Source of the DNA: an uncultured Acidobacteriota bacterium
GTDB taxonomy: Bacteria > Acidobacteriota > Vicinamibacteria > Vicinamibacterales > 2-12-FULL-66-21
Direction of reading: 5' to 3'
NCBI GenBank assembly: GCA_963734695.1
Contig: CAVTIL010000015.1
Coordinates: forward strand, 465,260 to 529,259
DNA: 64,000 bases
Program-made: the position numbers and the translations under genes
Shown: positions 13,195 through 62,981 of the stretch, one piece after another
How positions within the stretch are numbered: position 1 is the first letter of the stretch
Layout of the letters: every line of letters starts with the position of its first letter
Notes under the pieces: model-generated
What the model saw: only the letters and a program-made list of their open reading frames with translations
What the model was told of the DNA's origin: nothing
Database searches by the model: none

Positions 13195-13246
13195 AAATTC
13201 GATTCGAGGATCCGGGATTCAGGATCAGTGATCAGCGATCAGGGAT
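13195..13246. repeat. degenerate heptamer array (GGATCCG/GGATTCA/GGATCAG/TGATCAG/CGATCAG/GGATTCA)
   Basis: Read directly between the ADOP stop (13247) and the upstream small gene: ggatccgggattcaggatcagtgatcagcgatcagggattca. Confidence 0.5.
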
Positions 13247-15682
13247 TCATTCCTGCCTGAGCGCCACCAGCGGATCGACACCGGCCGCGCGGCGCGCGGG
13301 AATGTAACAGGCGCCGAGCGCGACGAGAGCGAGCACCATCGCGACGGCTGCATAAGAAAGCGGATCCGCCGGCTGCACGCCGAAGAGTTGGCTGCGCAGC
13401 AGCCGCGTGGAGGCCAGGCTCACGCCAATTCCGATCACCAGACCGACGAGCACCAGTCTTCCACCCATCAGCAGCATCAAACCCAGCACGTGGCGGCGTG
13501 GCGCCCCCAAGGCCATGCGCACACCCAGTTCGTGAGTGCGTCGAAGCACGTGAAACGACAGGACGCTGTAAATGCCTGCGGCCGCGAGCGCGAGACCGAT
13601 GAGTGCAAACGCGCTGAACAGCGCCATCGTGAAGCGGGGCTGAATCACGTCTTCCCCGAGCACCTCGCTGACCGTTATCGGTCGGCCCAGGGGCTGATCC
13701 GGATCCATGGCCCGGAGGGCGGCACGAATCGGATTCAGCTGGAGATTGGGATCCGCGGCCGTCCGCACCGCGAGCATGCGCTGCAGTGGCGCGACGACGG
13801 AGTACGGCAGGACGACGACCGGGTTGGGATCGTTCCTGAGACCGGCGTTCCGCGTGTTGGCAATCATGCCGACGATCGTGACCTCCGCGCTGCGGCTCGA
13901 ATCGATGAGCGTGCGGGGAGGCGGATTCTGCAAGGCGCCGAGGCGCATGCGCGCACCAATCGGATTCTCGCCTGCCGGAAACAATTTCACGGCGGCTTCA
14001 TTGATGAGTGCGACGCGATCGCCACGTCGAATTTCGGCCGCGTCGAACATCCGACCGCCCAGGAGCCGGATGCCGAACACGCGCAGATGATCGGCCCCGA
14101 CGAAGTTCAGCCCGATGCGTTTCGAGTCGTCGGGCGTCTGGCCGACGACGGCGAAAGACGACTGGGTGCCGCCGAACGGGTGACCGACCGAAGCGGCTTC
14201 GATACCCGGCAGGGTGCGGACGCGATCGATCAGCGCCTCCACGAATTGATTGCGCTGATCGAAGGTTCCGTACTTGGCCGGGGGCAAGGGAACGCCGACG
14301 AGCAACACCCGATCGGCGCGGATACCGGGATCGACGCGATTGAGAACGAAGAAGGTCCGGATGGTCAGCCCCGCGCTGACGAGCAGGACGACCGACAACG
14401 CAACCTCGACAATCACCAGCACGTGACGGCTCCGTCCGCCGTCGCTCTCCAAACCGGTGCTGCGGCCTGCCTTCAACGTGTCCGCAATGTCCGGCCGCGA
14501 CATGCGAAGCGCCGGCACGACACCGAACAGGATGCCCGTCACCAGCGACACAAGGACGGAGAACGCGAGGACCGGCAGATTGATGGCGACGCGCGATTCA
14601 TTGGGCACATAGAACTCGGGCATCAGGCTCACGATCGTCCGGATGGCGCCAAACGCGAAAAGAACACCAAGAGCGCCCCCAGCCAGCGAGAGCAGCGTGC
14701 TCTCGGTGAGCAGTTGACGAAGCAGGCGACGTCGCCCGGCGCCGATCGACATTCTCACCGCCATCTCTCGGGTCCTCGCGGTGCCGCGGGCGAGCTGGAG
14801 GTTCGCGACGTTCGCACACGCGATCAGCAGGAGGAACCCGACCGCGCCGAGCAGGAGCTGAAGGCTCGTGCGCATTTCGCCGCTGGCTACGGTCACGTCG
14901 AGATAGTTCCTCAGCCTGGTGGTAAAACCTTGAGGTGGAAATGTGGACGGCTTCTCGTTCGCCAGGCGTTGATTGAAGGCTTTCAGCTGTTCTTCGGCCG
15001 AGGCCGGGGAGACGCCGGGCGCCAGCCGCATGATGGGATTCACAAAGAACAGATCGGTTCGACCCGGAGCGAGCGGAAGCCAGAACCCGTCGTTGCCGTA
15101 CCAGCCAAAACGCGGCGGCATTACGCCGATGATGGTGTGCGGCCGGCCGTTGAGCTGCATCGTCCGACCGATCGCAGACGGACTGCCCTCGAAGAGGCGC
15201 AGCCACAACCGGTGACTCAACACCACGACCGGTTCGGCCAGCCCGTCAGGCCGAATGTCCGACGGTTGAATCGTGCGCCCGGCAATGGGCGGCACGCCGA
15301 GGAAATTGAAGGCGTTGCCGGACAAGAGGACCCCGTTGACACTCTCCGGCGCAAATTCCCCCGCCAGGAGCACTGTTTCCTGGGAAGTGGCCATGACATC
15401 GGCAAACGCCTGGATTTCCGACAATTGACGCACCTCGTCCAGCTGGTAGGCCCGACCTCCGCGGCCGTCCGCTCCGCGAAGCTCCGGCGCCCAGATCTCC
15501 CCCGGCCTGGCGTACGGATACGGCGCGATGATGACGCCGTAGATCACGCTGAAAATCGCTGACGTCGCGCCGATGCCGAGCATCAGCGACAGGAGCGCCA
15601 CGAGCGTGAACGCCGGGCTCCGCCGAAACGATCGAAGGGCGTAGCCGAGATCCTGAGTCAGTCCCCCTAGCCAGCGGGTCAT
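13247..15682 (-). CDS. ABC-type permease, ADOP family (double FtsX)
   Basis: 811 aa. N-terminus MTRWLGGLTQDLGYALRSFRRSPAFTLVALLSLMLGIGATSAIFSVIYGV. Two FtsX modules. C-terminus PARRAAGVDPLVALRQE. Intact. Confidence 0.85.
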   Translation of the reverse strand: MTRWLGGLTQDLGYALRSFRRSPAFTLVALLSLMLGIGATSAIFSVIYGVIIAPYPYARPGEIWAPELRGADGRGGRAYQLDEVRQLSEIQAFADVMATSQETVLLAGEFAPESVNGVLLSGNAFNFLGVPPIAGRTIQPSDIRPDGLAEPVVVLSHRLWLRLFEGSPSAIGRTMQLNGRPHTIIGVMPPRFGWYGNDGFWLPLAPGRTDLFFVNPIMRLAPGVSPASAEEQLKAFNQRLANEKPSTFPPQGFTTRLRNYLDVTVASGEMRTSLQLLLGAVGFLLLIACANVANLQLARGTARTREMAVRMSIGAGRRRLLRQLLTESTLLSLAGGALGVLFAFGAIRTIVSLMPEFYVPNESRVAINLPVLAFSVLVSLVTGILFGVVPALRMSRPDIADTLKAGRSTGLESDGGRSRHVLVIVEVALSVVLLVSAGLTIRTFFVLNRVDPGIRADRVLLVGVPLPPAKYGTFDQRNQFVEALIDRVRTLPGIEAASVGHPFGGTQSSFAVVGQTPDDSKRIGLNFVGADHLRVFGIRLLGGRMFDAAEIRRGDRVALINEAAVKLFPAGENPIGARMRLGALQNPPPRTLIDSSRSAEVTIVGMIANTRNAGLRNDPNPVVVLPYSVVAPLQRMLAVRTAADPNLQLNPIRAALRAMDPDQPLGRPITVSEVLGEDVIQPRFTMALFSAFALIGLALAAAGIYSVLSFHVLRRTHELGVRMALGAPRRHVLGLMLLMGGRLVLVGLVIGIGVSLASTRLLRSQLFGVQPADPLSYAAVAMVLALVALGACYIPARRAAGVDPLVALRQE

Positions 15683-25055: not shown

Positions 25056-28000
25056 TCAGGGTTTTATGGTCTTTTCCTCAGTTACTTCAGTTTGACCTTC
25101 ACCGGGCCGTTCGCCTGGACGAAGACGCCGTTGGCGTCCGTCAGATCGATGTAGATGTTGTAGCAGCCGACCGTCGAACGGCTTCGTCTGCCAGTTGAAG
25201 TGCCAGGTAAACGACGTCGTGTCGTAGTTGAAATCGCTGTTGCCCGGCGCCTGCTTGTCCAGGAACGGCACGCCGGTTTCGCTACCGTTCGTGCAGCTGG
25301 TGAGCGTTCTGACGCGCACGATCGGAACAAGCGTCCTCGTGTCAACAGGCGTCGCGCCTGACAGGTATTGCCACAGGAGCGGCACGGCGCTGCCCTGGTT
25401 GGCCGTCGCGGGGACGATCAACCCGCCGAACGCGAACGACAGCTGCACCGTCACGGTGAAGCTCTTTGTTGATGCGTTGAGCGCAGCGTCTTTCGCTGTG
25501 CACGTCACCGACGACGTGCCAATCGGGAACGTCGATCCGCTCGCAGGGCTGCAGGCGACGGACACGACGCCGACCGCATCGGTCGCGGGAGGCGTCGGAT
25601 ACGACACCGGAGCGCCCGCCAGGTTTGCGGTCCCTTTCGTCACGTTCGCGGTGGCGCCGATCACCGGAGCCGTCGTGTCCCGGACGAGCACCGAGAAGCT
25701 GGACGAGGCCGTATTGGTCGCGGCATCCGACGCGCGGCACGACACCGTCGTGGTGCCAATCGGGAAGGTCGAGCCGCTCGACGGCGTGCACGAAACGGAC
25801 GTGACGCCGACCGCATCCGTGGCTGACGGCAGCGCGAAGGTGACGGCGGCACCGGCCGCACTCGTCGCTTCGACGACGATGCCTGCCGGAGTCGCGATCG
25901 CGGGCGCGGTCACGTCCTTGACCGTGACCTTGAACGAAGCGGTAGCAGTATTGCCGGCCGCGTCCTTCGCGGTGCAGGTCACAACCGTCAAGCCGACGTT
26001 GAATGACGTGCCGCTCGCCGGCGAGCAGGTCTGCGACACGACGCCGACCGCGTCGGTTGCGGCGACGTTATACGTCACGGTGGCGCTGGTCGCATTGGCG
26101 GCGGCGTTCACCGTAACGTCGGGTGTCGACGCGAACGTGGGCGGCGTGACGTCCTTGACGATGACGTTGAAGATGGTGGTCGCCGTGTTGCCGGCCGCAT
26201 CGGAAGCCGTGCAGGTCACCGTGGTCGAGCCGACGGCGAACACGTGAGCCGCTGGCCGGTGAACAGGACAGGGAGGTCACGCCGATGTTGTCTGCGGCGG
26301 TCGACTGAATAGGTCACGGTCGCGCTCGTCGCATCGGCCGCCGCATTGATCGTCGTGTCGCCTGTCGACCCGAACGTCGGCGGTGTGACGTCCCTGGGCA
26401 CGTCGCTCGTGCAGAACTGCGTGGGGTCCGACGTGTTGCAGGCCGGTGGAGCAACCGCCGGATCGGTCTCGTGTCCCGTGTTCTTCGCCTGCGCCGTCAC
26501 CACGACACCGGCCGCATCCGGGCTGAAGCCTGTCGTCCCGGTGATCCGGAGCGTGATCAGGATCGTCTCACCTGGTTCAACGGGGACGCTGGCCGTCGGG
26601 ACGACGTTCGGCGGAGCCACCGTATTGGCAATGATTTGATTCACCGCCGTCTGCACCGGCCTGCAGTTCTGCGGTCGTGGTCACCTTGTAAATCCGTCGA
26701 ACGATCAACTGTGTGCCGTGCGGCGGCGCGACGCTGAACAACGGGTTGATGTCGACGCCGGACGTGGTGTTGCCGTTCATCTTGACGGCCCACGTCACTT
26801 CTGAAATCGCCGAATTCTCGATGTCGGCGTTTTCAATGTCGGCGTTCTCGATGTCCGCGTTTTCAATGTCCGCGTACGGAAGCGTCGCGCTCTGGAAATC
26901 CGCGTTCTCGATGTCGGCGTTTTCAATGTCCGCAAACGACGGCGTAAAGGTCGGCAAATCCGGGTTTTCGATGTCCGCATTCGTCGTGTACGCGGAGAAT
27001 GTCTTGTTCTCGATGTCCGGATTGTGCAGCTCGACCGTCTTCAAGTTGAAGTTCTGGAAGTCGATGTTCGTGAAGTCAGGATTCTCGATGTCCGCGGAAA
27101 TCGGATTGCCATTCAGCTGCGCGGTTGCCGTCTCTCCGCCCGCGATAGGCGTGCAGCTTGACGGATCCGACTCGCTGACCTGCACCGTGATCGCCGGTGG
27201 TTGAATCGACGACGACGTGACGAAGACGGTCTTGACTGTCTCCCGATCGTCCAGGAATCGTCACGCAGGCATCCACGACCGGCGACGGCGAGCTCGTGTT
27301 GTACGGCGGCAGCGGCAGCTGCGCAAAGGTGGCGCGACCGGTCGTGCCCGACGGCGGCGCATCGGCCGGTTGGTTGCGCGATATGGAGCCTGTAGGTCTT
27401 CTTTTGCGGCGTCGTATTGCGCACCCAGACGACATAGGTCCGCTGAATGCTCCCTGTCGGTTTCGACGCCGACGGCACGGTGACGATCAGTCCGGGCTTG
27501 ATGGATGTGCCGAAAATCTCCTGGTTCCTGGTGTTCGCCAGCGGCGTCGCCGGTGAACACGCAGGATACGTCATCGTCGGATCGCCGACGCCGTCCTGCG
27601 GCGCCGTGAACGTCGGAGGCGTATAGCCGGTGGGCGCGACGAGATCGGCGATGGTGTTGCCGCGCAGCGATCGGTTGTCTCCCCACGCAACGAAGAACGT
27701 CGGCTTGACGTCGACGGGTGTCGTATTCGGCACCCAGGCTCGGGTCGCGGGATCGATCTTCCACTGCTTGCCGGCGACGGCAATGTAGTCGCCGACAAAC
27801 GGCGTCTTCCCCTGTTGGAAGATCCGGGAGTTCGCAAAGTTGTTCTCGAGCTGAGCGACGACTGGCTGCGTGTTGCCGCCCGCGAAGCCCGGCGGCGCGA
27901 GGCCGATCAGATAGCTGGAGACTTTGATCGACTGCGTCAGCGCGAACGGCGATGGCTTCGAGAAGACGAGCTTCGATCCATCCCAGACGCCTTGCGCCGC

Positions 28001-47329: not shown

Positions 47330-47782
47330 TCACGCCCTCGACGGGCCCAAGTCCGAGGTGCAATTCGGACAGCGGGACGCTTTCGCGGGAATGCGCGAAA
47401 TGCAGAACGGGCAGTCCTTCAGGTCCGGCGCCGGCGGCGCGGGCGCCGGGGCTTTCATGCGGTTGATCTGCCGGACCATCAGAAAGATCACGAACGCCAC
47501 GATCAGGAACTCGAGCAGGGTATTCAGAAAGATGCCGTAGTTGATGGTCGGCGCGGCGGCTTTCTGCGCGTCCGCGAGGGACGCGTACGCTTGTCCGTTC
47601 AGTGCCACGAACAGGTTCTTGAAGTCGATGCGCCCGATGACCATCCCGATGGGAGGCATGACGATGTCGTTGACCAGCGAGGTCACGATCTTGCCGAAGG
47701 CCGCACCGATGATGACGCCGACCGCGAGATCCACCACGTTGCCGCGCGCCGCGAAATCACGGAACTCTTTCATCATGGACAT
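47330..47782 (-). CDS. mscL: large-conductance mechanosensitive channel MscL with C-terminal CxxC...CxxC zinc-ribbon extension
   Basis: [20 protein letters not shown] (TM1 signature), then TM2. Tail [22 protein letters not shown]. 150 aa. Confidence 0.85.
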
Positions 47783-47952: not shown

Positions 47953-48015
<63 letters not shown>

Positions 48016-48019
48016 GAAA

Positions 48020-49261
48020 CTACTTCTTGTAACTAATCCGATAAATCACCCCAGCGAAATCGTCCGACACGAGCAGCGCACCATCGGGCATGACAAAGAC
48101 ATCGGCTGGACGCCCCCACGTCTTCCCGGTCGTCTGCGTGCCGCGCGTGCCGGCCACGCCCTGCAGCCAGCCTTCGGCAAACGGCGTAAAACTGGTGACG
48201 TTCTCACCCTGAAGCTTCGCCACCATCACACGGTAGCCGAGCGGTACGGACCGATTCCACGAGCCATGCTCCGCGATGAAGATCTGGTTCCGATATTCAG
48301 CAGGAAACATGGTGCCGGTGTAGAACCGCATGCCAATCGCGGCACCGTGTGGATCGAGTTTGCGCGCCGGCGGCTGGAACTCGCTGCACGCATGCTTGTC
48401 GCCGAACTCCGGGTCCTTGATCTCGCCAGCGTGGCAGTACGGAAATCCGAACGCGAGGCCCTTCTTCGGCGCGTGGTTCAATTCGTCCGGCGGAATGTCG
48501 TCGCCGAGGAGATCGCGGCCGTTGTCGGTGAACCACATCTCGTGCGTCTGGGGATGCCAGTCAAACCCGACGCTGTTGCGAACGCCGCTGGCGAAGATCT
48601 CCGTCGCGGTGCCGTCAGGCTTCATGCGGAGGATCGTCGCGAAACGCGGATCCTCCGGCCGTTCGCACACGTTGCACGGCCCGCCGACCGGGACGTAGAG
48701 CAGCCCGTCGGGTCCGAACCGGATGAACTTCTGACCGTGATGCGATTCGGTGGGCAGATCACTTTTCACGACCACCGGCGCGGGCGGCTTTTCCAGTTGT
48801 GACTCGATGTCGTCGTAGCGCGTGACGCGACTGATTTCGGCGACGTAGAGCGACCCGTCGCGGAACGCGACGCCGCTTGGATCCTTCAGGCCCTCCGCGA
48901 TCGTGAAGACCTGATCGGCCTTCTGATCGTGATCGCGATCGACGATCGCGTAGACCTTGTTGAAATCGCGGCTGCCGACAAACAGCGTGCCCTTCGCACC
49001 CATCACCATCTCGCGGGCGTGCGCCACTCCGGTCGCGTACAGATCGATGTGGAATCCCGGGGGCAGCGTGATTTGGTCCAGCGGCAGGGACGGTGGCGCC
49101 TGGGCCGTCCAGCCGCCGAGGGCGGCGACCGCGATCGTGGCGGCAAGAAGCTTGTACATAAAGTAAGGAGCATAGTCGATCGACGGTTTGGCGCGAGTTG
49201 GGGGTCGGATGTTAAATTTTTCGCTTTGTGCTATTTTCATAGCACCTTTTACCGGATCCAA
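48020..49261 (-). CDS. PQQ-dependent soluble sugar (glucose/sorbosone) dehydrogenase family beta-propeller protein
   Basis: 413-aa ORF. Probable true start at MYKLLAATIAVAALGG (about 49159, signal peptide). Motifs HHGQKFIRFGPDGLLYV and GFDWHPQTHEMWFTDNGRD typical of the GSDH family. Confidence 0.7.
   Translation of the reverse strand: MDPVKGAMKIAQSEKFNIRPPTRAKPSIDYAPYFMYKLLAATIAVAALGGWTAQAPPSLPLDQITLPPGFHIDLYATGVAHAREMVMGAKGTLFVGSRDFNKVYAIVDRDHDQKADQVFTIAEGLKDPSGVAFRDGSLYVAEISRVTRYDDIESQLEKPPAPVVVKSDLPTESHHGQKFIRFGPDGLLYVPVGGPCNVCERPEDPRFATILRMKPDGTATEIFASGVRNSVGFDWHPQTHEMWFTDNGRDLLGDDIPPDELNHAPKKGLAFGFPYCHAGEIKDPEFGDKHACSEFQPPARKLDPHGAAIGMRFYTGTMFPAEYRNQIFIAEHGSWNRSVPLGYRVMVAKLQGENVTSFTPFAEGWLQGVAGTRGTQTTGKTWGRPADVFVMPDGALLVSDDFAGVIYRISYKK
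49228..49245. promoter_or_regulatory. perfect 7-bp inverted repeat GTGCTAT-tttc-ATAGCAC in an AT-rich divergent promoter region; candidate BlaI operator
   Basis: Read directly. 75 nt upstream of the blaI ATG at 49321, within the locally AT-rich block gttaaatttttcgctttgtgctattttcatagcacctttt. Confidence 0.4.
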
Positions 49262-49320
49262 CCGTCCAATGCCTTAGAACGCAGTTTTTGAACGGTCTGC
49301 GGACGGAGATATCGCAAAAA

Positions 49321-49710
49321 ATGACGAATCGACCTCATAACGACCTCAGCCGCCGAGAGCGTCAAATTATTGACATCCTCTATGCGAACGGCCAGGCGAC
49401 CGCCGCTGAAGTTCAAGCGGCGCTCCCCGAACCGCCCAGCTACTCGGCAGTCCGGGCGATGCTTCGGATTCTCGAAGAGAAAGGGCACGTCAGGCACGAA
49501 CAGGACGGCCCTCGCTATATCTACCTGCCGACGCTCGGCCGGGACAACGCCCAGCGCTCCGCGCTGCATCACATGTTGAAAACCTTCTTTGACGGTTCTG
49601 CCGAACAGGCCATCTCCGCCCTGCTGGACGAGTCGTCGCAGAAACTTTCGGACGCTGAGCTCGATCGGCTCGCCAGGCTGATCGACCAGGCGCGGAACGC
49701 CGGAGCCTGA
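49321..49710 (+). CDS. blaI: BlaI/MecI/CopY-family penicillinase-repressor-type transcriptional regulator
   Basis: MTNRPHNDLSRRERQIIDILYANGQATAAEVQAALPEPPSYSAVRAMLRILEEKGHVRHE is a winged-helix Penicillinase_R signature. About 130 aa. The stop lies 2 nt before the BlaR1-like gene. Confidence 0.8.
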   Translation: MTNRPHNDLSRRERQIIDILYANGQATAAEVQAALPEPPSYSAVRAMLRILEEKGHVRHEQDGPRYIYLPTLGRDNAQRSALHHMLKTFFDGSAEQAISALLDESSQKLSDAELDRLARLIDQARNAGA

Positions 49711-49712
49711 TA

Positions 49713-52009
49713 ATGAGCATCTTTCACTTCTTGCCTGTGGACTCCGGCACCTCATGGCTCCCCGTCGCCAGCGTCGTCCTGAAGGCCACGCTGATGCTGG
49801 CTGCCGCCGGCGCCGCCGCGTTTACTCTCCGTCGCAGGTCTGCCGCGCTGCGCCACATGATCTGGACGCTCGCGCTCGCCGGGGTTCTGCTGCTGCCCGT
49901 ACTGTCGATTGCGTTGCCGAGGTGGCAACTGTCGTTGGTGAAGATCGAGAAGGCAGCCTTCGCTCCCGCGCCGTGCGAAGGCTGTCTCGCCGAAGCGGCC
50001 GTGGCCGCGAAGGCGGACGCACAGTCAGCAACCCGCAGCCAGGAGTCGGAGAGCAATCGCCACCAGCCAATAACCAGAAGCCAGCAGCCAGAAGCCAGCC
50101 CTTCGACTCGCGCTGCCACCGACGCTCGCTCAGGGCAGGCAGCCAGCCTGTCATGGTCCACGATTCTGCTGGTGACTTGGATGGCAGGCGCGCTGTTGAT
50201 CCTCGCGCGCCTTGCCGCAGGGATCGTCGCGGTCCGATGGATGTCCCGGCGAGCCGAGCGCGTGACCGACGCGCCATGGCTGGCGCAGGCTCGATCGCTT
50301 GCGGCGGAGCTCGGGATCTCTTCACGGATCGCGTTTCTGCGCAGCAGTGGCGCATCCATGCCGATGGCGTGGGGCATCCTGCGCCCTGCCGTGTTGATGC
50401 CGGCGGTTGCCGACGAGTGGCCGGCCGAGCGGCTGCGGATCGTGCTGCTCCACGAGCTTGCGCACGTCAAGCGGCGCGACTGTCTCACGCACATGCTCGC
50501 GCAGGTCTCGTGCGCGTTGCACTGGTTCAATCCGCTGGCGTGGATGGCCGCCCGGCACGTTCGCCAGGAACGCGAACGCGCATGCGACGACCTGGTTCTC
50601 GCCGCTGGCACACGCGGTCCGGACTACGCCGATCAGCTCATCGAGATCGCACGGGTGATGCGCTCCGGCCGATTCCCCGCGATCATGGCGGGAGCGAGCC
50701 TGGCGATGGCGCACCGCTCGGAGCTCGAAGGCCGTCTCATGGCCATCCTGGATCCGAGCGTTCCTCGAGCGCGCGCTTTCGCGCGTGCGCGCCGCGGGAG
50801 CCACGTCGCTCTTCGCGCTGGCGGTCATGCCGCTGGCGTCAATGCAGCCCTGGACGATCGTCTCCACGCCTGGGGAGACACCCGCGCCAGCGGCCGTTCA
50901 GCAGAGCGCGTCTGCCGTCACGGCTCAATCGCCGACGCCCACGCCCACGCCAACGCCAACGCCGACGCCGACACCGTCAGATTCGTCCGACCGCTCGCAC
51001 CGGATCGACGCGGATAGCGCGGCTCACAGCGCGAGCGCGGCCGCGCAGTCGGCCGTTCAAAGCGCGGTGCAGAGCGGAATCCAGAGCGGGGTTCAAGCCG
51101 GCGTGCAGTACGGGGTCGCCGGCGCGATGGCGGGCGTGCAGGCCGTAACTGGCCACTTCGACGTCGGGACCCTCAATGCGGCTATCAACGCAGGTTTGGA
51201 CGCAGCCGCGCAGGCCGCGGCGAATCCGCATGACAACGGCGGCCGTCCGAGCAAGGCGGATCCCAGGACCGTTGCGGCCTTGACGGCGGCACTGAAGGAC
51301 ACAGACAAGGACGTTCGCGAAACCGCGATGCACGCGCTCGTGCAACTGCGCGATCCAAGTATTTTCGATCCGCTCGTCCAGGCGCTGTCTGATGGCTCGC
51401 CTGATGTGCGCGAGCAGGCCGCGTTCGGGCTCGGACAGCTTCGCGATCCGCGCGCCGTCGAACCACTGATCGGCGCGTTGAAGGATCAGAACGCGGACGT
51501 GCGCCAGCAGGCGGCATTCGCGCTCGGGCAGATTCGCGACCACAGTGCGGTTCCTGGCTTGAGCGCCGCGCTGAAGGATTCGAGCGACGACGTGCGCGAG
51601 CAGGCAGTCTTTGCGCTCGGGCAGATTCGCGACCCGGCGTCGGTCGATGCCCTCGTCGTGGCGGTGCGCGACACCAAGGCCGACGTCAGGCAGCAGGCCG
51701 TGTTTGCGCTCGGGCAGATTCGCGATCGGCGCGGCGTCGAGCCGCTCATCTCTGCCTTGAAGGATCCGGCTGCCGACGTGCGCGAGCAGGCCGCGTTCGC
51801 GCTCGGGCAGATTCGTGACCCCCGCGCGGTGGAACCGCTGGTGATTGCGCTGAAAGACAGCGTCTCTGATGTGCGCGAGCAGGCCGCGTTTGCGCTCGGG
51901 CAGATTCGCGACCCACGCGCGATCGACGGTCTGACGACGGCGCTCAAGGACTGCGAGCGCCGACGTTCGACAGCAGGCGGCGTTCGCGCTCGGGCAGCTG
52001 GCTCGTTGA
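49713..52009 (+). CDS. BlaR1/MecR1-like M56 peptidase membrane sensor fused to a Pro/Thr linker and C-terminal HEAT-repeat domain. Apparent frameshifts near 50790 and 51965.
   Basis: 4-TM M56 domain with HELAHVKRRD (HExxH) in ORF 49713..51017. The frame switches to ORF 50785..52023, which has a (PT)n linker and about 8 repeats of ALKDxxxDVRxQAAFALGQIRDPRAVEPL. The final repeat is only in frame (DVRQQAAFALGQLAR*) after a shift near 51965, giving a stop at 52009. Confidence 0.55.
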
Positions 52010-52013
52010 TTTC

Positions 52014-52082
52014 TGATTGCTGATTGCTGATTGCTGATTGACTCGGCCCAATCAGCAATCAGCAATCGACAATCAGCAATCG
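52014..52082. repeat. inverted array of heptamer repeats: (TGATTGC)x4, 9-nt loop, (GCAATCA)x4; potential ~30-bp hairpin
   Basis: tgattgctgattgctgattgctgattga ctcggccca atcagcaatcagcaatcgacaatcagcaatcg, read directly after the BlaR1-HEAT stop. Confidence 0.7.
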
Positions 52083-52084
52083 AA

Positions 52085-52124
52085 GGGCGGGGCCAAAGGC
52101 CCCGCCGACCCATTGGTGTGTTTT
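52085..52124 (+). terminator. Rho-independent terminator-like hairpin (GGCGGGGCC-aaa-GGCCCCGCC) followed by a U-rich tract
   Basis: 9-bp GC stem with 3-nt loop at 52086-52106, then gacccattggtgtgttttc. Confidence 0.5.
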
Positions 52125-52148
52125 CAGATGCTACGTTTTTAGCAGGAG

Positions 52149-52916
52149 ATGCGCATGACTCCCCTCGCTGTCTTTGTTCGGACCCTACTCAAGACGAGCG
52201 CCGTGTTCATCGGCGTCACGACCGTAATGCTGCACCCGTCGTTCGAATGGTCCCGCGCCTCCGGGTTGTCCACGTCGTACACGCGCGTCGTGACGGCGCG
52301 GCAGAGCCCGGCAGAAGCGGCCGTCGATGCACTCGTCGCGGCGCTGAAAGACACGGATGCGGGCGTCAGGCGCCAGGCGGCGGCTGCGCTTGGCGACATC
52401 GGCAACGCGCGCGCGGTGACGGGATTGATCGACGCGCTGAAGGACGCCGACCCGGACGTGCGTCAGCACGCGCTGTCGGCGCTCGGCGAGATCGGTGACC
52501 GCCGTGCCGTCACGGCCATCGCGGGCCTCCTGAAGGACAGTTCGCCTTCGATTCGCAGGAGCGCGGCGTCCGCGCTTGGCGAGCTTGGAGACAGCACGGC
52601 GGTCGATCCCCTCATCGCCGTCATCAATGATGCGAATGCCGATGTGCGGAGACACGTCATCTCGGCGCTCGGAGAACTGGGTGACTCTCGAGCGCTGCCG
52701 GCGTTGACGACCGCGCTCAAGGACGCAGATGTCGCGGTGCGTCGAGCGGCCATACAGGCGATCGCCGAGATCGGCGACGGAGGCGGGGGGCATCGTTTCA
52801 ACGTGCACGTACCCAGTCCCCATCCCCATCCGCATCCGCACCCGAATCCCAACCCGAACCCCAATCCCAATCCGAATCCAAACCCGCGGCTCCAGGAATT
52901 CAGCCAGGAGCAGTGA
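52149..52916 (+). CDS. HEAT-repeat (PBS-lyase-like) protein with C-terminal HPHPHPNPNPNP low-complexity tail
   Basis: Six ALKDxDxxVRxxAxxALGxIGDxRAV repeats. Signal/TM-like N-terminus. Tail PHPHPHPHPNPNPNPNPNPNP. Intact, 255 aa. Confidence 0.7.
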   Translation: MRMTPLAVFVRTLLKTSAVFIGVTTVMLHPSFEWSRASGLSTSYTRVVTARQSPAEAAVDALVAALKDTDAGVRRQAAAALGDIGNARAVTGLIDALKDADPDVRQHALSALGEIGDRRAVTAIAGLLKDSSPSIRRSAASALGELGDSTAVDPLIAVINDANADVRRHVISALGELGDSRALPALTTALKDADVAVRRAAIQAIAEIGDGGGGHRFNVHVPSPHPHPHPHPNPNPNPNPNPNPNPRLQEFSQEQ

Positions 52917-53896
52917 CGTGATTCGGACCCTCGTCGCTTCACTGACCGCGCTGGTGACGCTGGCCGCGTCGGCGAACGAGTATCACGACATCCAGGCGCG
53001 GAGCATGCGCGAACTCATCGCAGATCTTGCCGCGCAGGATCCTGTTGTCAGAGCGCGTGCCGCGTGCGAGATGCGCGAACTGGGCGACACGGCGCGTCGA
53101 TGCCATTCAGCCTCTCGCGAGCATGCTCGGCGATGCGGCGCCGGTCGAACCGCAGGTCTGCAGCCGCAACTGGTGGCGCGGCAACCCCAACGACCTCACA
53201 TCGCCCGGCGAGCAGGCTGCCGCGGCGCTGGTGGCGATCGGCACGCGCGCGTTTCAACCGGTGTTGGGTGCGCTTCGCAGCACGACATGGACGGCTCGTC
53301 GCAACGCCGCGTGGGCCCTGGGCGCGTTCGACGATCAGCGCGCCGTCGATGCGCTGGTCGAAGCATTGAAGGATCGTGAACCCGGCGTTCGCGAGCAGGT
53401 GGCGTGGGCGCTCGGCGCCATCGACGACAAACGTGCCGTACAGGCACTCATCGGTGCCTTGAAAGACACCGATCCGCGCGTCCGCAGACAGGCCGCATGG
53501 GCGCTCGGCGCCATTGACGATCCGGCCGCAGCGGACGCGCTCTCGGCGGCACTCAGCGATAGCGACGAACCGACGCGGGCGCAGGCCGCGTGGGCGCTCG
53601 GCGCGATAGACGACCGAAGCGCCGTGCCGGCGCTGATTCGAGCGTTGGAGGATCACGCCGAGCGCGTCCGGAAACAGGCCGCGTGGGCGCTTGGCGCGAT
53701 CGATGACTCACGAGCGGTGGACGCACTCGTCAAGGCGCTGTCGGACCAGAGCCAGGGCGTCCGCCAGCAGGCAGCCTGGGCGCTCGGCGCCATCGGCGAT
53801 TCGCGGGCGCTGCCCGGCTTGCTGCCAGCGCTCAAGGACACCGACGCGGGCGTGAGGAAGCAGGCCGCATGGGCGATTGGCGCGATCGGAAAGTGA
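52917..53896 (+). CDS. HEAT-repeat protein (third in a row). Apparent frameshift near 53095.
   Basis: GTG start with signal-like VIRTLVASLTALVTLAASA and a first HEAT unit in frame 52729... After a shift at about 53095, the continuation in ORF 53027..53896 has about 8 repeats of VREQVAWALGAIDDKRAVQALIGALKD. Confidence 0.55.
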
Positions 53897-53906
53897 GGGT
53901 CGGTCG

Positions 53907-56398
<2,492 letters not shown>

Positions 56399-56401
56399 AC
56401 A

Positions 56402-58820
56402 TTGCGGACGTTACTCCAGGATTTGCGTCACGGCGTCCGATTGCTGCTCGGCTCGCCAGGCTTCACCGTTGTTGCCGTCGCGGCGCTCGCGCTCGGTATC
56501 GGCGCCAACACCGCCATCTTCAGCGTGGTCAATACGGTTCTCATTCAGCGCCTGCCCTACAGGGACCCCGATCGTCTCGCGATCGTCTGGGAACACAACC
56601 TTCCGCGCGACCGCAAGAACAACGTCGTGTCGCCCGCCAATTTCCTTCATTGGCGGGAAATGAATCGCACGTTTGACGAGATGTCGATCGTGAGCATGAC
56701 ATTCCGCACGGCGTATACCGGCGACGGGGAGCCCGAAGAACTGCCGATGCAGATCGTGAACGCCACGCTGTTCCCGATTCTCGGAGTCAACGCCGCAGTT
56801 GGACGGGTATTCACGGCGGCGGAGGATCAGCCGAACGCCAATCGATTCGTCATCCTCAGCGATCGGTTCTGGAAGCGGCGGTTCGCCGCCGATCCGCGCG
56901 TCATCAACCGTGGCATCAGGCTCGGCGGGAACCTTTTTACCGTGGTGGGGGTCATGCCGCCTGGATTCTCCATTCTCGACAAGAACGTCGACGTCTGGGT
57001 TCCGGCAGGATTCTCGGCGGAGGCCCGCGCGCCACAGGGCCGCTGGACCATGGTCGTCGCGCGGTTGAAAGATGGCGTCACGTTTCCGCAGGCACAGGAC
57101 GACATGACCCGCGTGGCCAGCGAGCTGACGCGGAAGTTTCCGAATTTCGACACCGGATGGACCGCGCGGGTCGTGCCGCTGAAGGAACAGCTGACTGGCG
57201 ATGTCCGCCCTGCTCTTCTCGTACTGCTTGGTGCCGTCGGGTTCGTGCTGCTCATCGCCTGCGCGAACGTGGCCAACCTGCTGCTCGCGCGCGCGACGAG
57301 CCGTCAGCGAGAGCTCGCGGTTCGCGCCGCGCTGGGAGCGGATCGTGCGACGTCTGATCAGGCAGCTGCTCGCCGAAAGCCTGCTGCTCGCTGTGGTCGG
57401 CGGCGCCGCGGGCGTTGGTCTTGCCTGGTGGGGGCTTCGATTTCTGCGGACCGTGGTCTCGGCAAACCTGCCGGTTTCACGGCTGGAGTTTGTCGGACTC
57501 GACCCATGGGTCCTTTCGTTCGCCTGTGTGGTTGCCCTCGCAAGCGGCCTGCTGTTCGGCGTGATCCCGGCATTCACCGCTGCGGGCAGCAGCCTGACCG
57601 ATGCGCTCAAAGAGGGCGGGCGAACTGGAAGCGCGAGCCGCGGGAGACGTGCACGGCACGCCCTGGTCGTGATCGAAATGGCGCTTGCGCTCGTTCTCTT
57701 GGTTGGAGCGGGACTGCTGGTCCGCAGCTTCATGACGTTGATGCGCGTCGATCCCGGCTTCGATCCGTCTCGAACCGTGACCATGAAGGTCACGCTGCCT
57801 TCCGCGAGCTATCGGGATGAAGGCCGGTCGATTGCCTTCTTCGACCGCTTGTTCGCTCGCCTCGACACGCTGCCCGGCGTTCAGGCCACCGGCGGTGTGA
57901 GCTTCCTGCCTCTCAACGGACTGGGAGCCGCGACAAGCTTCTTCATCGAGGGACACGAGAAGCCCCGCACCGGAGACGAGCCGGTCTCGGACGTCCGAGT
58001 CGTCACGCACGACTACTTCAAGGCCATGGGCATTCCGCTCTTGCGTGGACGTCTCTTCGACGGCCGTGACACGGCGCCGAAGACCAGGCGCATCATCGTG
58101 AGCGAGATGCTGGTCAAGAAGTATTTCGGCGACGTGGATCCAATCGGACGCCGGATCGTCCTCGCGTGGAACGACGAGGGCCCGGACGAGATCATCGGCG
58201 TCGTGGGCGATATCCGATCGGCGAGCCTCGAAACCGAGCCCAAAGGCGCGAGCTATCTTCCACCGGCCCGATTCGCGTATCCATTCACGACCGTCGTGGT
58301 GAAGACCCGGGACGAGAGCTTGAGCGTCGTGCCCGCGCTGGTCAACGCGGTGCACGAAATCGACCCGGACGTGCCGGTCGCCGACATCATGCCGATGACG
58401 GCAGTCATCTCCGTGTCCACGGCCGAGCGCCGCGTCACGATGATCATGCTGATGATCTTTGCGGCCGTGGCGCTTGTGCTGGCCTCGGTTGGAATCTACG
58501 GGGTCATCAGCTATTCCGTCACGCAGCGTACCCAGGAAATTGGGATCCGGATGGCCCTGGGAGCGCAGCGCGCTGATGTGCTGCGGATGGTTGTCGGCCG
58601 TGCCATGGTCCTGGCCGTCGCAGGAATCGGGCTCGGCGCCCTAGGTGCGTTTGCCCTGACCCGGCTCATGTCGAAGCTGCTTTTCAGCGTGCGCCCCGAG
58701 GATCCTCTGACGTTCGCGGCGGTGGCTGCTCTGCTGGCGGTGGTGGCCGCCCTGGCGAGCTACCTTCCTGGACGCCGGGCCACGCGCGTCGATCCCGTGG
58801 TGGCGCTCAGGGCTGAATGA
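56402..58820 (+). CDS. ADOP-family double-FtsX permease. Single apparent frameshift near 57340.
   Basis: TTG start. [42 protein letters not shown]... in-frame to ...[10 protein letters not shown]. The frame then switches to ORF 57201..58820 ([25 protein letters not shown] ... second FtsX ... [17 protein letters not shown]). Confidence 0.75.
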
Positions 58821-58886
58821 CAAGGGATAAGCACCTTTTCCCCTGTTTCCTGCCTCTGCCGTTCTTTTGCGGTACGATTCGCGTGC

Positions 58887-60200
58887 ATGCTGGTGGCCTG
58901 GGCGATCATCGCCCTGCTCATTCTCCTGACCGGCTTATTTGTGGCTGCGGAGTTCGCAGCGGTCAGCGCCAGGCGGAGCCGCCTTCGCAGGATGGCAGAG
59001 GACGGAAACGTCCTGGCAGCCCGAATCCTGCCCGTCCTCGAAGATCCCGGAGCGCTCGACCGTTACATCGCGGCGTCGCAGATAGGCATTACGCTGTCCA
59101 GCCTGATCCTCGGCGCCTACGGGCAGGCGACACTTGCGCCGCGGCTGGAACCGTTCCTCGAGCGCTTTGAACGCATGCAGCCGGCGACCGTCGAGTCGGT
59201 CGCCGCCGGCATCGTGCTGACGTTTCTCACCACGCTTGCCGTGATTCTGGGCGAGCTCGTGCCGAAATCGCTCGCGCTGCAGAATCCCACCCGCACGGCG
59301 CTCTTCACCGTTCTTCCGATGCAGTGGTCGATCCGCGTCTTCTCGTGGTCGATCAACTTCCTCAACGGCAGCGCTGTTTTGCTGCTCAAGGCGCTCCGCA
59401 TTCCCTCGACCGGCCACCGGCACGTGCACTCGCCGGAGGAGATCGCGCTGCTGATCGCGGAAAGCCGCGACGGCGGCCTGCTCGAGCCCGAGGAACAGGT
59501 CCGCCTTCACCGGGCACTCCGGCTGGGACTGCGCAGTGCGCGACAGTTGATGGTCCCGCGCGCGCGCCTCGCGGCCATCGATGCGTCGCTGCCCTTCGAA
59601 GACGTTCTGCGGACCGTGGCGGCGAGTCCGTACAGCCGGCTTCCGGTTTACCGCGGGTCGATGGACAACATCATCGGCATCCTTCACACGAAGGATGTCG
59701 TGACGCGTTACGTCCAGGCGAGCGGTCTGACGGTGAGCATTCTGCTCCGGCCGATCGTGCGCGTGCCCGATACGATGGCCGCAGATCGTCTGCTGACATT
59801 CCTGCGTGAGCGCCGAAGCCACCAGGCGCTGGTCGTCGATGCCAACGATTCGGTGGTAGGTCTCATCACGCTCGAGGACGTGGTCGCCGAACTGCTCGGC
59901 GGCGTGTCGGACGAGTTCAAGTCGATGCAGGCGCGGCCGATCCGTCTCGCGGACGGACGTCTCCGCCTTCCGGGATCGATGCGGCTGGATCAGGCCGCCC
60001 GGCTCATGGGGTCTGCGTGGCGCAGCCTCGATCGGACCGTCGCCGAGCAAATCACGACGGTCCTGGGCCGCATTCCTGAGCCGGGTGAGGAAGTCGACGT
60101 CGACGGCGTCCATGTCGAAGTCGAAGCGCTCGACGGGAATGCCATCACGTCGGTCATCGTCGGCGAACGGCTCAAACAGGACGAAGGCGCAGGGGCGTGA
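58887..60200 (+). CDS. CNNM/HlyC-CorC family transporter (DUF21 membrane domain, CBS pair, CorC_HlyC)
   Basis: 437 aa. N-terminus LVAWAIIALLILLTGLFVAAEFAAVSARRSRL (DUF21). CBS-pair region. C-terminal transporter-associated domain. Intact. Confidence 0.8.
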   Translation: MLVAWAIIALLILLTGLFVAAEFAAVSARRSRLRRMAEDGNVLAARILPVLEDPGALDRYIAASQIGITLSSLILGAYGQATLAPRLEPFLERFERMQPATVESVAAGIVLTFLTTLAVILGELVPKSLALQNPTRTALFTVLPMQWSIRVFSWSINFLNGSAVLLLKALRIPSTGHRHVHSPEEIALLIAESRDGGLLEPEEQVRLHRALRLGLRSARQLMVPRARLAAIDASLPFEDVLRTVAASPYSRLPVYRGSMDNIIGILHTKDVVTRYVQASGLTVSILLRPIVRVPDTMAADRLLTFLRERRSHQALVVDANDSVVGLITLEDVVAELLGGVSDEFKSMQARPIRLADGRLRLPGSMRLDQAARLMGSAWRSLDRTVAEQITTVLGRIPEPGEEVDVDGVHVEVEALDGNAITSVIVGERLKQDEGAGA

Positions 60201-61486
60201 CGGCCTTCTTGATCATCGCGGCGCTGATCATCCTGAACGGGCTGTTCGTCGCGGCGGAGTTTGCCATCGTGGGCGCCCCGCGGGCCGCGATCGACCAGAA
60301 AGCGCACGAGGGCAACAGGCTCGCGCGCGCCGTGCAGCGCATCTTCGACGATCCCAAACAGCAGGATCGGTACATCGCAACCGCGCAGCTCGGCATCACC
60401 ATAGCCAGCCTCGGCCTGGGCATGTATGGCGAGCATGTGCTGGCCGACGGGCTCTACGAATTGCTCGGCGGCCATGGACTGCCGCAACTCTTCGCGTCGC
60501 ACGGACTGGCGAGCACGCTGGCGGTCGTGATCCTGACCTACTTCCACATCGTCATCGGCGAAATGATTCCGAAGTCTCTCGCGCTGCAGCGCGCGGAGCA
60601 GCTGGCGATGTGGATCACGCCTCCGATGCGCTGGATCCGCAACGCCCTGTTCCCGTTCGTGCTGGCGCTCAGCGCGCTGGGGAACTATGTGTTGAAGCTG
60701 CTTGGCGTCAACCGCCAGGCGCAGGCCGCCGATCAGTACTACACGGCCGAGGAACTGCAGCTCATCGTGCAGGAGAGCGAGGACCTCGGCGCCATTCGCG
60801 CCGAGTCCGGACAGATGCTGCAGGAGCTGTTCGAGTTCGGCGGCCTGTCGGCCGGTGAGGCCATGGTGCCGCGAGTCCGCGTGGTCGGCATTCCGCTCGG
60901 GACGCCGCCCGATCAGATCCGCGAGCTTCTCGGACGGACGCCCCACACGCGCTACCCGATCTACGAGCGGGATCTGGATCACATCATCGGCATGGTTCAC
61001 ATCAAGGATCTGCTGGGTGTGCTTCTGCGCGGCGAGGCGATTGGACGAACTCACGTGCGGCCCCTGCCGCTGGTTCCCGAAACCGCGCTCCTTGATTCAG
61101 TGCTGTCGACGATGCGGCGGGAGCGGACGCAGATGGTGATCGTTCTCGACGAGCACGGGGGCACCGCCGGCGTCGTCACGCTCCAGGACCTGTTCGAAGA
61201 GGTCGTCGGCGAGATCGAAGAGGGTCCTCTCACGGCACCGCAGGTGTATCGCGACCCGAGCGGACGACTGCGCGTGCCTGGAACGATGCGACTCGACGAA
61301 CTGGGCCAGGAATTCGATCTCGATCTGGAGCACGAGGACGTCGACAGCGTCAGCGGCCTGGTGCTCACGCTTCTTGGCCGGCCTCCCGCCGTCGGCGACA
61401 CGATTCGTTACGAGCGCCTGCAGTTGGAGGTGACCAGGGTCAAAGGCCACGGCGTCGATGAATGCGCGGTATCGCTCGTGCCGTGA
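60197..61486 (+). CDS. CNNM/HlyC-CorC family transporter (tandem paralog)
   Basis: 429 aa. LIIAALIILNGLFVAAEFAIVGAPRAAI. Same architecture as the upstream gene. Its start overlaps the upstream stop (GTGA). Confidence 0.8.
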   Translation: MTAFLIIAALIILNGLFVAAEFAIVGAPRAAIDQKAHEGNRLARAVQRIFDDPKQQDRYIATAQLGITIASLGLGMYGEHVLADGLYELLGGHGLPQLFASHGLASTLAVVILTYFHIVIGEMIPKSLALQRAEQLAMWITPPMRWIRNALFPFVLALSALGNYVLKLLGVNRQAQAADQYYTAEELQLIVQESEDLGAIRAESGQMLQELFEFGGLSAGEAMVPRVRVVGIPLGTPPDQIRELLGRTPHTRYPIYERDLDHIIGMVHIKDLLGVLLRGEAIGRTHVRPLPLVPETALLDSVLSTMRRERTQMVIVLDEHGGTAGVVTLQDLFEEVVGEIEEGPLTAPQVYRDPSGRLRVPGTMRLDELGQEFDLDLEHEDVDSVSGLVLTLLGRPPAVGDTIRYERLQLEVTRVKGHGVDECAVSLVP

Positions 61487-62797: not shown

Positions 62798-62858
62798 CGA
62801 ATCGTGTCCTCCCCGGAGGCGCCGGGATCACGGGATTCTATCCGAACTGAAACGAACA

Positions 62859-62981
62859 GGTTCTACAGGGTTCTGCTGGGTTCTACGAGGTTCTGCAAGG
62901 TTCTGCAAGGTTCTCTGAACCGAATGAACCCCGAACGAACCCCGTAGAACCTTGTAGAACCCTGTAGAACCCTGCAGAACC
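62859..62981. repeat. 10-bp-phased pentamer array: (GGTTC-N5)x6 followed by (N5-GAACC)x7, an inverted pair of direct-repeat arrays
   Basis: GGTTC starts at 62859, 69, 79, 89, 99 and 909. GAACC starts at 62917, 27, 37, 47, 57, 67 and 77. Exact 10-nt periodicity. Unit consensus GGTTCTRCAR. Lies between the methyltransferase stop (62993) and the DctA-like start (62797). Confidence 0.85.

Follow-up and report, generated by a model that had tools for sequence, protein, structure and literature searches.

What would a BlaR1-type membrane protease perceive when its penicillin-binding sensor domain is replaced by a solenoid of HEAT repeats, and which genes would it control? The question is raised by a four-gene module in a 64,000-nucleotide (nt) stretch of DNA, hereafter the window, from an uncultured Acidobacteriota bacterium (Vicinamibacterales, 2-12-FULL-66-21; contig CAVTIL010000015.1, positions 465,260 to 529,259; GC content ~64%). 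The module consists of blaI, encoding a repressor of the BlaI family, a gene for an M56 zinc peptidase fused to HEAT repeats (M56::HEAT), and two genes for free HEAT-repeat proteins, heat3 and heat4. A preliminary description, made from the letters of the sequence, had proposed a proteolytic signalling module, a proposal that is supported by the conserved linkage of the genes and by the candidate operators that they share. The answer favoured here, with somewhat better than even confidence, is that the module encodes a regulated-proteolysis switch of the BlaI/BlaR type with a non-canonical HEAT sensor, and that the frameshifts interrupting two of its genes are most likely sequencing errors. 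The features of the module and of the genes that follow it directly are listed below, with positions counted from the first base of the window.

49229-49244: putative BlaI operator 1, TGCTATTTTCATAGCA (TGCTA-N6-TAGCA), 77 nt 5′ of the blaI ATG
49321-49710, + strand: blaI, 129 amino acids (aa), winged-helix repressor of the BlaI/MecI/CopY family, intact
49713-52009, + strand: M56::HEAT sensor-protease gene, ~763 aa after removal of two 1-base insertions
52006-52106, + strand: two hairpins between the M56::HEAT stop codon and operator 2
52129-52144: putative BlaI operator 2, TGCTACGTTTTTAGCA, abutting AGGAGA, 5 nt 5′ of the heat3 ATG
52149-52916, + strand: heat3, 255-aa HEAT protein, intact
52918-53896, + strand: heat4, ~325-aa HEAT protein, one 1-base insertion at ~53095
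53907-56395, + strand: ADOP-family duplicated MacB/FtsX-type permease gene 1, broken, at least 5 frame changes
56411-58820, + strand: ADOP-family duplicated MacB/FtsX-type permease gene 2, broken, 1 frame change near 57346

The repressor and the M56::HEAT fusion protein

The blaI product matches Pfam Penicillinase_R (PF03965) over the entire profile (positions 1-115 of 115; 102.3 bits against a cutoff of 22.6, E = 3e-29). For comparison, 82 reference loci (L numbers) were collected by a profile scan with an M56::HEAT alignment at one genome per GTDB species, and their open reading frames (ORFs) were classified; DNA identity of the window to its nearest relatives is ~79-83%. The window repressor is 95% identical to its orthologue in L001, and a blaI gene lies directly upstream of the M56 gene in 82 of the 82 loci. 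The best NCBIfam match of the repressor is CopY_TcrY (TIGR02698), at 47 bits far below the cutoff of 121.95, and it also falls below the cutoff for BlaI_of_BCL. Inspection of its 129 residues revealed no cysteine and thus no CxCx4CxC metal site; a CopY-type direct metal repressor was rejected on the strength of this absence and the low score.

The M56::HEAT gene begins with an ATG at 49713, separated by the 2 nt noted in the preliminary description from the blaI stop codon, which ends at 49710. On the protein reconstructed by removal of the two insertions, Pfam identifies Peptidase_M56 (PF05569; 121 bits against a cutoff of 31), HEAT_2 (181 bits) and HEAT_PBS (157 bits), and every element previously reported for it, namely the HELAH motif, the (PT)7 linker and about eight PBS-type HEAT repeats, could be located. 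From the N-terminus, the protein comprises three transmembrane helices (TM1-3), a gluzincin domain with HELAH at 50451-50465 and ERERACDD, which holds the EXXXD motif, at 50568-50591, a TM4-like helix (50800-50844), (PT)7 (50932-50973), a low-complexity (VQSx)n stretch and eight HEAT repeats (51256-52006). Both HELAH and E-x3-D are invariant across an alignment of 29 M56::HEAT orthologues. The segment that joins (PT)n to the HEAT domain consists of repeated tetrapeptides, (V-Q-S-x)n in the window (~51000-51130) and (G-V-x-x)n in L037 (4309-6663); its length differs among orthologues (for example L001, 6001-8409), and AlphaFold2 (AF2) models it as helical at very low confidence.

No transpeptidase/penicillin-binding protein (PBP) domain (PF00905) was found in the M56::HEAT protein by the Pfam scan, and the NCBIfam scores for blaR1_generic (94 bits against a cutoff of 400) and sensor_BlaR1 (20 against 1200) are likewise low. 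Similarity of the M56 part to the BlaR1 structures 8EXP and 8EXS is weak (E = 5e-4 over ~95 residues). The sensor HEAT domain is built of eight 31-residue repeats of the form D-V-R-[EQ]-Q-A-[AV]-F-A-L-G-Q-I-R-D. At the DNA level these repeats, with a period of 93 bp, are only 69% alike, whereas the protein repeats are near-uniform, which argues for selection on the repeated surface and not for recent duplication. In the AF2 model of the orthologue P0004 the HEAT solenoid is predicted with a pLDDT (predicted local distance difference test) of ~97, TM1-3 and the first half of the protease reach 70-93, and the TM2-TM3 loop and the linker are disordered.

The fusion is a property of the family. 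A homologue search with the reconstructed 763-aa protein gave, among the 120 matches listed, proteins of 706-861 aa with 51-81% identity (most 60-70%), nearly all with full-length BLASTP coverage (94-100%) and all with PF05569 and HEAT families. Each of the 120 listed homologues has HELAH, and 109 of them end exactly in ...AFALGQ[LI]AR, with a close variant in the others. Separate M56 and HEAT genes with starts of their own had been named as the outcome that would undo the idea of a fusion; for the family this does not hold, as at least 120 M56::HEAT orthologues are single uninterrupted ORFs.

With regard to topology, hydrophobicity analysis of M56::HEAT gives three strong segments and a weak fourth. 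The short loop between TM1 and TM2 is Arg-rich and the segment after TM3 is positively charged; this charge pattern, together with the helix that follows the protease, fits the published BlaR/PetP topology, in which HEXXH is cytoplasmic and the C-terminal domain is periplasmic. We infer on these grounds that the HEAT domain of the sensor is periplasmic, and go no further because TM4 is weakly hydrophobic and is modelled by AF2 with low confidence. Other M56 proteins of the scan carry, at the equivalent C-terminal position, SBP_bac_1, SecDF_P1_head or CarboxypepD_reg plus redoxin domains, all of which are extracytoplasmic types. Examples linked to BlaI are found in L077 (4979-8617; SBP_bac_1), L058 (5872-10287; SecDF P1-head) and L080 (5827-10047; CarboxypepD_reg with a thioredoxin/AhpC-like domain), and these proteins are further uncharacterised sensor variants.

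The free HEAT proteins

Two further HEAT-repeat genes follow the fusion gene, as had been described. The heat3 product, 87% identical to that of L001, has a conserved N-terminal hydrophobic helix that may be a signal or an anchor, five HEAT repeats, and a C-terminal X-Pro tail (~52821-52886) that reads (HP)4(NP)7 and not, as first given, (HP)4(NP)9. The tail is conserved in L001-L004, L007 and L008, while a His-Pro tail is absent in L017 and outside Vicinamibacterales. AF2 models the heat3 solenoid with a pLDDT of 78-91 and the tail as disordered. The heat4 gene opens with a GTG 1 nt past the heat3 stop codon, and encodes a Sec-type signal peptide (…LAASA|NEY), an N-terminal module and six QAAWALGAIDD repeats. 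Across the heat4 family the signal peptide is accompanied by two invariant cysteines, a combination that fits an exported, disulfide-bonded protein.

All three HEAT proteins score above the HEAT_2 gathering score, with 181 bits for the sensor (eight repeats), 132 for heat3 (five) and 230 for heat4 (six). A QAAWALG consensus common to both free proteins had been reported; it is confined to heat4, as heat3 has the signature AA[AS]ALG[DE]I and the sensor QAAFALGQIRD. Within each protein the surface positions of the repeats that are normally variable are uniform. A phycobilin-lyase function of the HEAT proteins was rejected, as their NCBIfam scores lie below the cutoffs for CpcE (81-103 bits against 330) and NblB (78-101 against 300). 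In the proteins P0147 and P0154 (L083, 5001-5858) a single free HEAT gene joins the N-terminal helix of heat3 (MxPLAVFFRT...) to the Cys module and W-type repeats of heat4. Such genes suggest that a single membrane-tethered partner gave rise to heat3 and heat4 by fission or duplication.

Distribution and gene linkage

Fusions of M56 with HEAT had been thought lineage-specific, but they are found in Acidobacteriota (Vicinamibacterales, Blastocatellia and Thermoanaerobaculia), in Gemmatimonadota including Longimicrobiales, and in Rhodothermales. The co-occurrence of BlaI with HEAT-repeat genes, which had been proposed as a check, is pronounced: a free HEAT gene lies immediately downstream in 20 of the 22 M56::HEAT loci with downstream sequence versus 0 of 58 other M56 loci (Fisher p = 7e-17). 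When sampled from the opposite direction, 4 of 4 heat4 homologues lie within blaI-M56::HEAT-(heat3)-heat4 modules; the heat4 homology search behind this sample was dominated by repeat matches, did not return the nearest orthologues, and served only for context sampling. Synteny of the four-gene module is unbroken in L001-L003, and spacing in the window is tight, with 2 nt from blaI to M56::HEAT, 1 nt from heat3 to heat4 and 10 nt from heat4 to the first ADOP gene. In Blastocatellia, Thermoanaerobaculia and Gemmatimonadota the sensor and the free partner share a lineage-specific repeat subtype, the consensus identity being 0.94-1.00 to the own partner versus ~0.76 to others. Collectively, these comparisons support the view that the four genes form one conserved module.

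Candidate operators and output genes

Position 49228, from which the preliminary description had the module begin, is not a gene start; it coincides with the first base of an 18-bp palindrome, GTGCTAT-N4-ATAGCAC, that contains operator 1 and is part of an intergenic block 5′ of blaI conserved in L001-L003. Its core, TGCTA-N6-TAGCA, occurs at exactly two sites in the window even when one mismatch is allowed (0.25 expected), a number that none of 100 shuffles of the window reached. Both positions are matched in L001 and L002, and the same holds for L003-L005, L007 and L010. L006 and L008 have the operator 2 site and no exact site 5′ of blaI.

Across the 82 loci and the window (~0.98 Mb) there are 83 exact sites, where composition predicts ~0.4 for ~1.02 Mb. 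A site lies within 450 nt 5′ of blaI in 45 of 82 loci when exact matches are counted and in 60 of 82 with up to one mismatch, and 106 of the 123 sites with up to one mismatch fall in this zone. This is strong comparative evidence that the palindrome is a putative autoregulatory BlaI operator of a broad clade. The palindrome usually occurs as two tandem copies 5′ of blaI, with starts ~19-21 or ~43-44 bp apart (L011, L013, L024, L034, L036, L044, L047, L050, L052, L054, L055, L061, L066, L070, L079 and others), in Gemmatimonadota, Planctomycetota, Verrucomicrobiota and Acidobacteriota and with any M56 C-terminal domain. The tandem arrangement looks like a pan-clade operator architecture.

The preliminary description had made its case depend on co-regulation of the HEAT genes with blaI. 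Because the same palindrome precedes both, co-regulation of the blaI operon and the heat3 unit is indicated on sequence grounds, and the recurrence of operator 2 points to a second BlaI-controlled unit, heat3-heat4-ADOP, in Vicinamibacterales. Visual inspection gives a weak hint that the operator's AT-rich spacer may double as a -10 element: TATTTT falls within operator 1, and a TTGnnG-N17-TTTTTA element runs into operator 2 in the window and in L001 and L002. Upstream of operator 2 are two hairpins. The first (52006-52083) has a long stem, formed by (TGATTGC)x4.9 and then the complementary (CAATCAG)x4.7, that L001 and L002 lack; the second (52086-52106), a GC-rich stem-loop, recurs with other sequence in both relatives. 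Folding of the region gave -77.7 kcal/mol (z = -9.0), and the pair of hairpins resembles a terminator or attenuator.

The genes directly coupled to heat4 belong to the ADOP family. In L001 the ADOP orthologue is full-length, contains two MacB_PCD plus FtsX units and scores 843.5 bits against TIGR03434 (cutoff 622.3); the copies in the window match this orthologue in pieces across frames. Because they are co-oriented with heat4 and start 10 nt past it, the ADOP genes are the probable output genes of the module. The assembly seems rich in indels across these genes (53907-58820).

Proposed mechanism

In the mechanism that best accommodates these observations, BlaI dimers would bind TGCTA-N6-TAGCA both 5′ of blaI-M56::HEAT, for autoregulation, and 5′ of heat3-heat4-ADOP, the output unit. 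The M56 protein would keep the membrane and gluzincin core of BlaR1 on the cytoplasmic side and, past TM4 and the X-Pro and low-complexity linker, would expose its eight-repeat HEAT solenoid to the periplasm. A periplasmic cue, most likely a protein, a peptide or another extended ligand, would act on the HEAT surface, and the activated protease would cleave BlaI and so derepress both units. The induced free HEAT proteins, which are paralogous to the sensor domain and would reach its compartment by export, would most likely modulate the sensor as ligand-titrating decoys or docking partners, with the ADOP permeases as the predicted effector.

A more tentative extension, possible but on balance doubtful, is that the modules of Acidobacteriota, Gemmatimonadota and Rhodothermales are three-component systems, in which BlaI-controlled exported paralogues act as mimics of the receptor or as co-receptors and so define the threshold of the switch, and in which TGCTA-N6-TAGCA is a previously undescribed operator of a broad BlaI clade. 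The X-Pro segments, that is the (HP)n(NP)n tail of heat3 and the (PT)n linker of the sensor, would possibly be recognised in setting this threshold. If this were true, it would amount to a decoy-receptor feedback logic that is not described for BlaR-type systems.

Several observations weigh against the switch as outlined. TM4 has a Kyte-Doolittle value of ~1.4, below threshold in two of three sequences, and the corresponding helix in the P0004 model (366-388) is of low confidence; the same model is also poor over the second half of the protease. The BlaI protein of Staphylococcus aureus is cleaved at N101-F102, and a site of this type is not obviously conserved in the window repressor. Operator 2 lies so close to the heat3 start codon that the mode of repression is not obvious, and a sigma-70 promoter scan of 49100-54000 gave no match near either palindrome. 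The AF2 model of heat3 alone shows no sign of docking of the X-Pro tail, a result that is uninformative as the tail is disordered. In Vicinamibacterales the sensor surface (F/Q/RD) differs from that of heat4 (W/A/DD), and a role as partner would fit this better than that of a simple decoy.

Frameshifts and alternative explanations

The frameshifts that had been placed at 50790 and 51965 are real features of the sequence as given, but alignment with four intact relatives puts one extra base each at ~50776 and ~51953 in M56::HEAT, and a third, previously overlooked, at ~53095 in heat4. Programmed frameshifting was rejected, given that the three sites lack a common slippery motif, the relatives are unshifted and neighbouring genes are broken too. 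Taken at face value, the insertions would mean that M56::HEAT, heat4 and the ADOP genes are pseudogenes, or that the system is split into a truncated M56 protein and a TM4-anchored HEAT protein; a GTG at 50785 does open an ORF of 412 aa, whose start lies just ahead of the TM4-like helix, and at least nine frame changes are bunched within ~8 kb (50.7-57.4 kb) while mscL, the dehydrogenase gene (GSDH), blaI and heat3 are intact. Such a broken locus is nonetheless quite unlikely. The in-frame pieces are 72-90% identical to L001 at the protein level (72% for the first 60 residues of heat4, 74% for the M56 core, 82-90% for the rest), a range that overlaps the 84-95% of the intact neighbours and gives no sign of relaxed selection, and all three events in the module are single-base insertions, in a family of which at least 120 members are uninterrupted. 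In L001-L004 the genes, including the ADOP orthologues, are intact, and two of these loci (L002 and L003) come from non-long-read projects, whereas the same genes are fragmented in long-read MFD metagenome-assembled genomes (MAGs; L005 and L010) and the M56 gene is split in L083, also a long-read MAG. Because this kind of breakage recurs in neighbouring genes and in other long-read MAGs, the frameshifts are most likely sequencing or assembly errors, and the copy would in reality be intact.

Two further readings concern what the module does. One, which is unlikely, is that of a metal sensor comparable to PetR/PetP or CopY, in which the His-Pro tail of heat3, or the HEAT proteins themselves, would bind a periplasmic divalent metal and the output would be metal handling. 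It would account for the best NCBIfam match of the repressor, for the conservation of the (HP)n tail among heat3 orthologues and of a CNNM/CBS/CorC divalent-cation transporter pair downstream, and PetRP provides a precedent for an M56/BlaI pair that can respond to copper; but the CopY_TcrY score and the lack of a Cys motif in the repressor count against it, as do the restricted occurrence of the tail, the larger gaps between heat4 and the CNNM genes, which have no operator, and the nature of the directly coupled genes, which are ADOP (MacB/FtsX-type) permeases and not metal pumps. The other holds that the HEAT domain is not a sensor at all, being a cytoplasmic or passive scaffold for substrate recruitment or oligomerisation, with the free HEAT genes as regulon cargo of unrelated function. 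The weak hydrophobicity and low-confidence model of TM4 would allow this, and HEAT and alphaRep scaffolds are generic protein binders; it is very unlikely given the positive-inside pattern, the conserved TM4 motif (P385, A387, Q390 and W392 are invariant in the alignment), the clearly extracytoplasmic domains that other M56 fusions carry at the same position, the export signals and invariant Cys pair of the free partners, and the tight linkage of sensor-type and free HEAT genes across phyla with shared repeat subtypes.

Comparison with known systems

The switch with a HEAT sensor resembles BlaR1/BlaI and MecR1/MecI of Staphylococcus and Bacillus (PDB 8EXP/8EXS) in that a Penicillinase_R gene lies beside a gene for an M56 gluzincin protease with HEXXH and EXXXD. 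The predicted succession of TM1-3, protease, a weakly hydrophobic TM4 and an extracytoplasmic C-terminal domain would be that of the β-lactam sensor-transducers BlaR1 and MecR1, and as in BlaR1/BlaI a palindromic operator, putative in the present case, precedes the regulator operon and a second, output unit. Differences from these systems are the missing transpeptidase/PBP sensor domain, the gene order with blaI before M56, the operator sequence, and outputs that would be HEAT proteins and ADOP permeases as opposed to β-lactamase or PBP2a.

M56 proteases paired with a BlaI-family repressor and without β-lactam sensing are also known from CenIR (Clostridioides difficile), PetRP (Synechocystis), PvmSR (Pseudomonas aeruginosa), Rv1845c/Rv1846c and MAB_2414c/2415c. 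PetRP responds to copper (doi 10.1101/2020.07.31.226407), and PvmSR and the mycobacterial BlaIR systems are without a sensor domain. The M56 proteins of these pairs lack a C-terminal domain or end in a short unstructured tail, in contrast to the large folded eight-repeat solenoid and the free paralogues found here, and the PetR site, GAC-N5-GTC, is unlike TGCTA-N6-TAGCA. Another parallel is provided by the M56::TonB_C fusions of Bacteroidota (TonB1 and TonB10 of Bacteroides thetaiotaomicron), which also combine M56 with a periplasmic protein-interaction domain and are also uncharacterised; their C-terminal domain is a different one, and a paralogous free partner is not reported.

The HEAT domains share their 31-residue repeat with the PBS-lyase-type HEAT-like proteins and with the artificial alphaRep binders that were designed from this repeat family, and the solenoid is ~50% identical to the alphaRep consensus (TM-score ~0.8-0.9 on target). 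In contrast to phycobilin lyases and alphaRep, the repeats here are predicted to be exported or membrane-tethered, and their surface positions are uniform per protein.

A 2026 study of C. difficile CenIR sorted ~15,000 M56 proteins of InterPro into 254 architectures; a PBP domain is present in only ~6%, most of the proteins lack it and have diverse C-termini, and HEAT does not occur in any of the nine architectures that are represented by 100 entries or more (PMC13492132). Literature searches on M56 with HEAT and on periplasmic PBS-type HEAT proteins found no relevant paper, and the earlier impression that such fusions are uncharacterised is consistent with this. The M56::HEAT system is an uncharacterised variant within the known BlaI/BlaR family.

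Neighbouring features of the window

The module is flanked by the following genes.

47333-47782, - strand: mscL, intact
48023-49159, - strand: pyrroloquinoline quinone (PQQ)-type glucose/sorbosone dehydrogenase-like gene, intact
58821-61486, + strand: two CNNM/CBS/CorC genes

The operator motif scan of the 64 kb gave no site before the CNNM/CBS/CorC genes. A CNNM/CBS/CorC_HlyC pair of this kind is kept 3′ of the module in Vicinamibacterales relatives (L083-L086), with or without ADOP genes between. The spacer that separates the dehydrogenase gene from mscL holds a perfect (GCGAACC)x8.7 array (47955-48015), and further intergenic tandem arrays of 14-mers and 10-mers are found at 13201-13249 and 62858-62981; the short intergenic arrays, including the (TGATTGC)n hairpin, may belong together as one family of small repeats. 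A tandem repeat with nested periods of 15, 30 and 60 bp (2.3-7.5 copies) occupies 26815-26978, where two opposite-strand ORFs overlap.

Significance

No concept is overturned by the M56::HEAT system, because the diversity of M56 C-termini has already been published. BlaR-type M56 proteases are widespread, and studies have been limited to the β-lactam-sensing minority and a few sensor-less cases. The predicted operator offers a handle for mapping the regulons of a BlaI clade that extends across many phyla. With a folded, binder-like sensor domain, dedicated paralogues, a candidate operator at two promoters and a candidate ADOP output, the module would be a tractable model for signal perception by non-PBP BlaR-like sensors in abundant, little-studied soil phyla.

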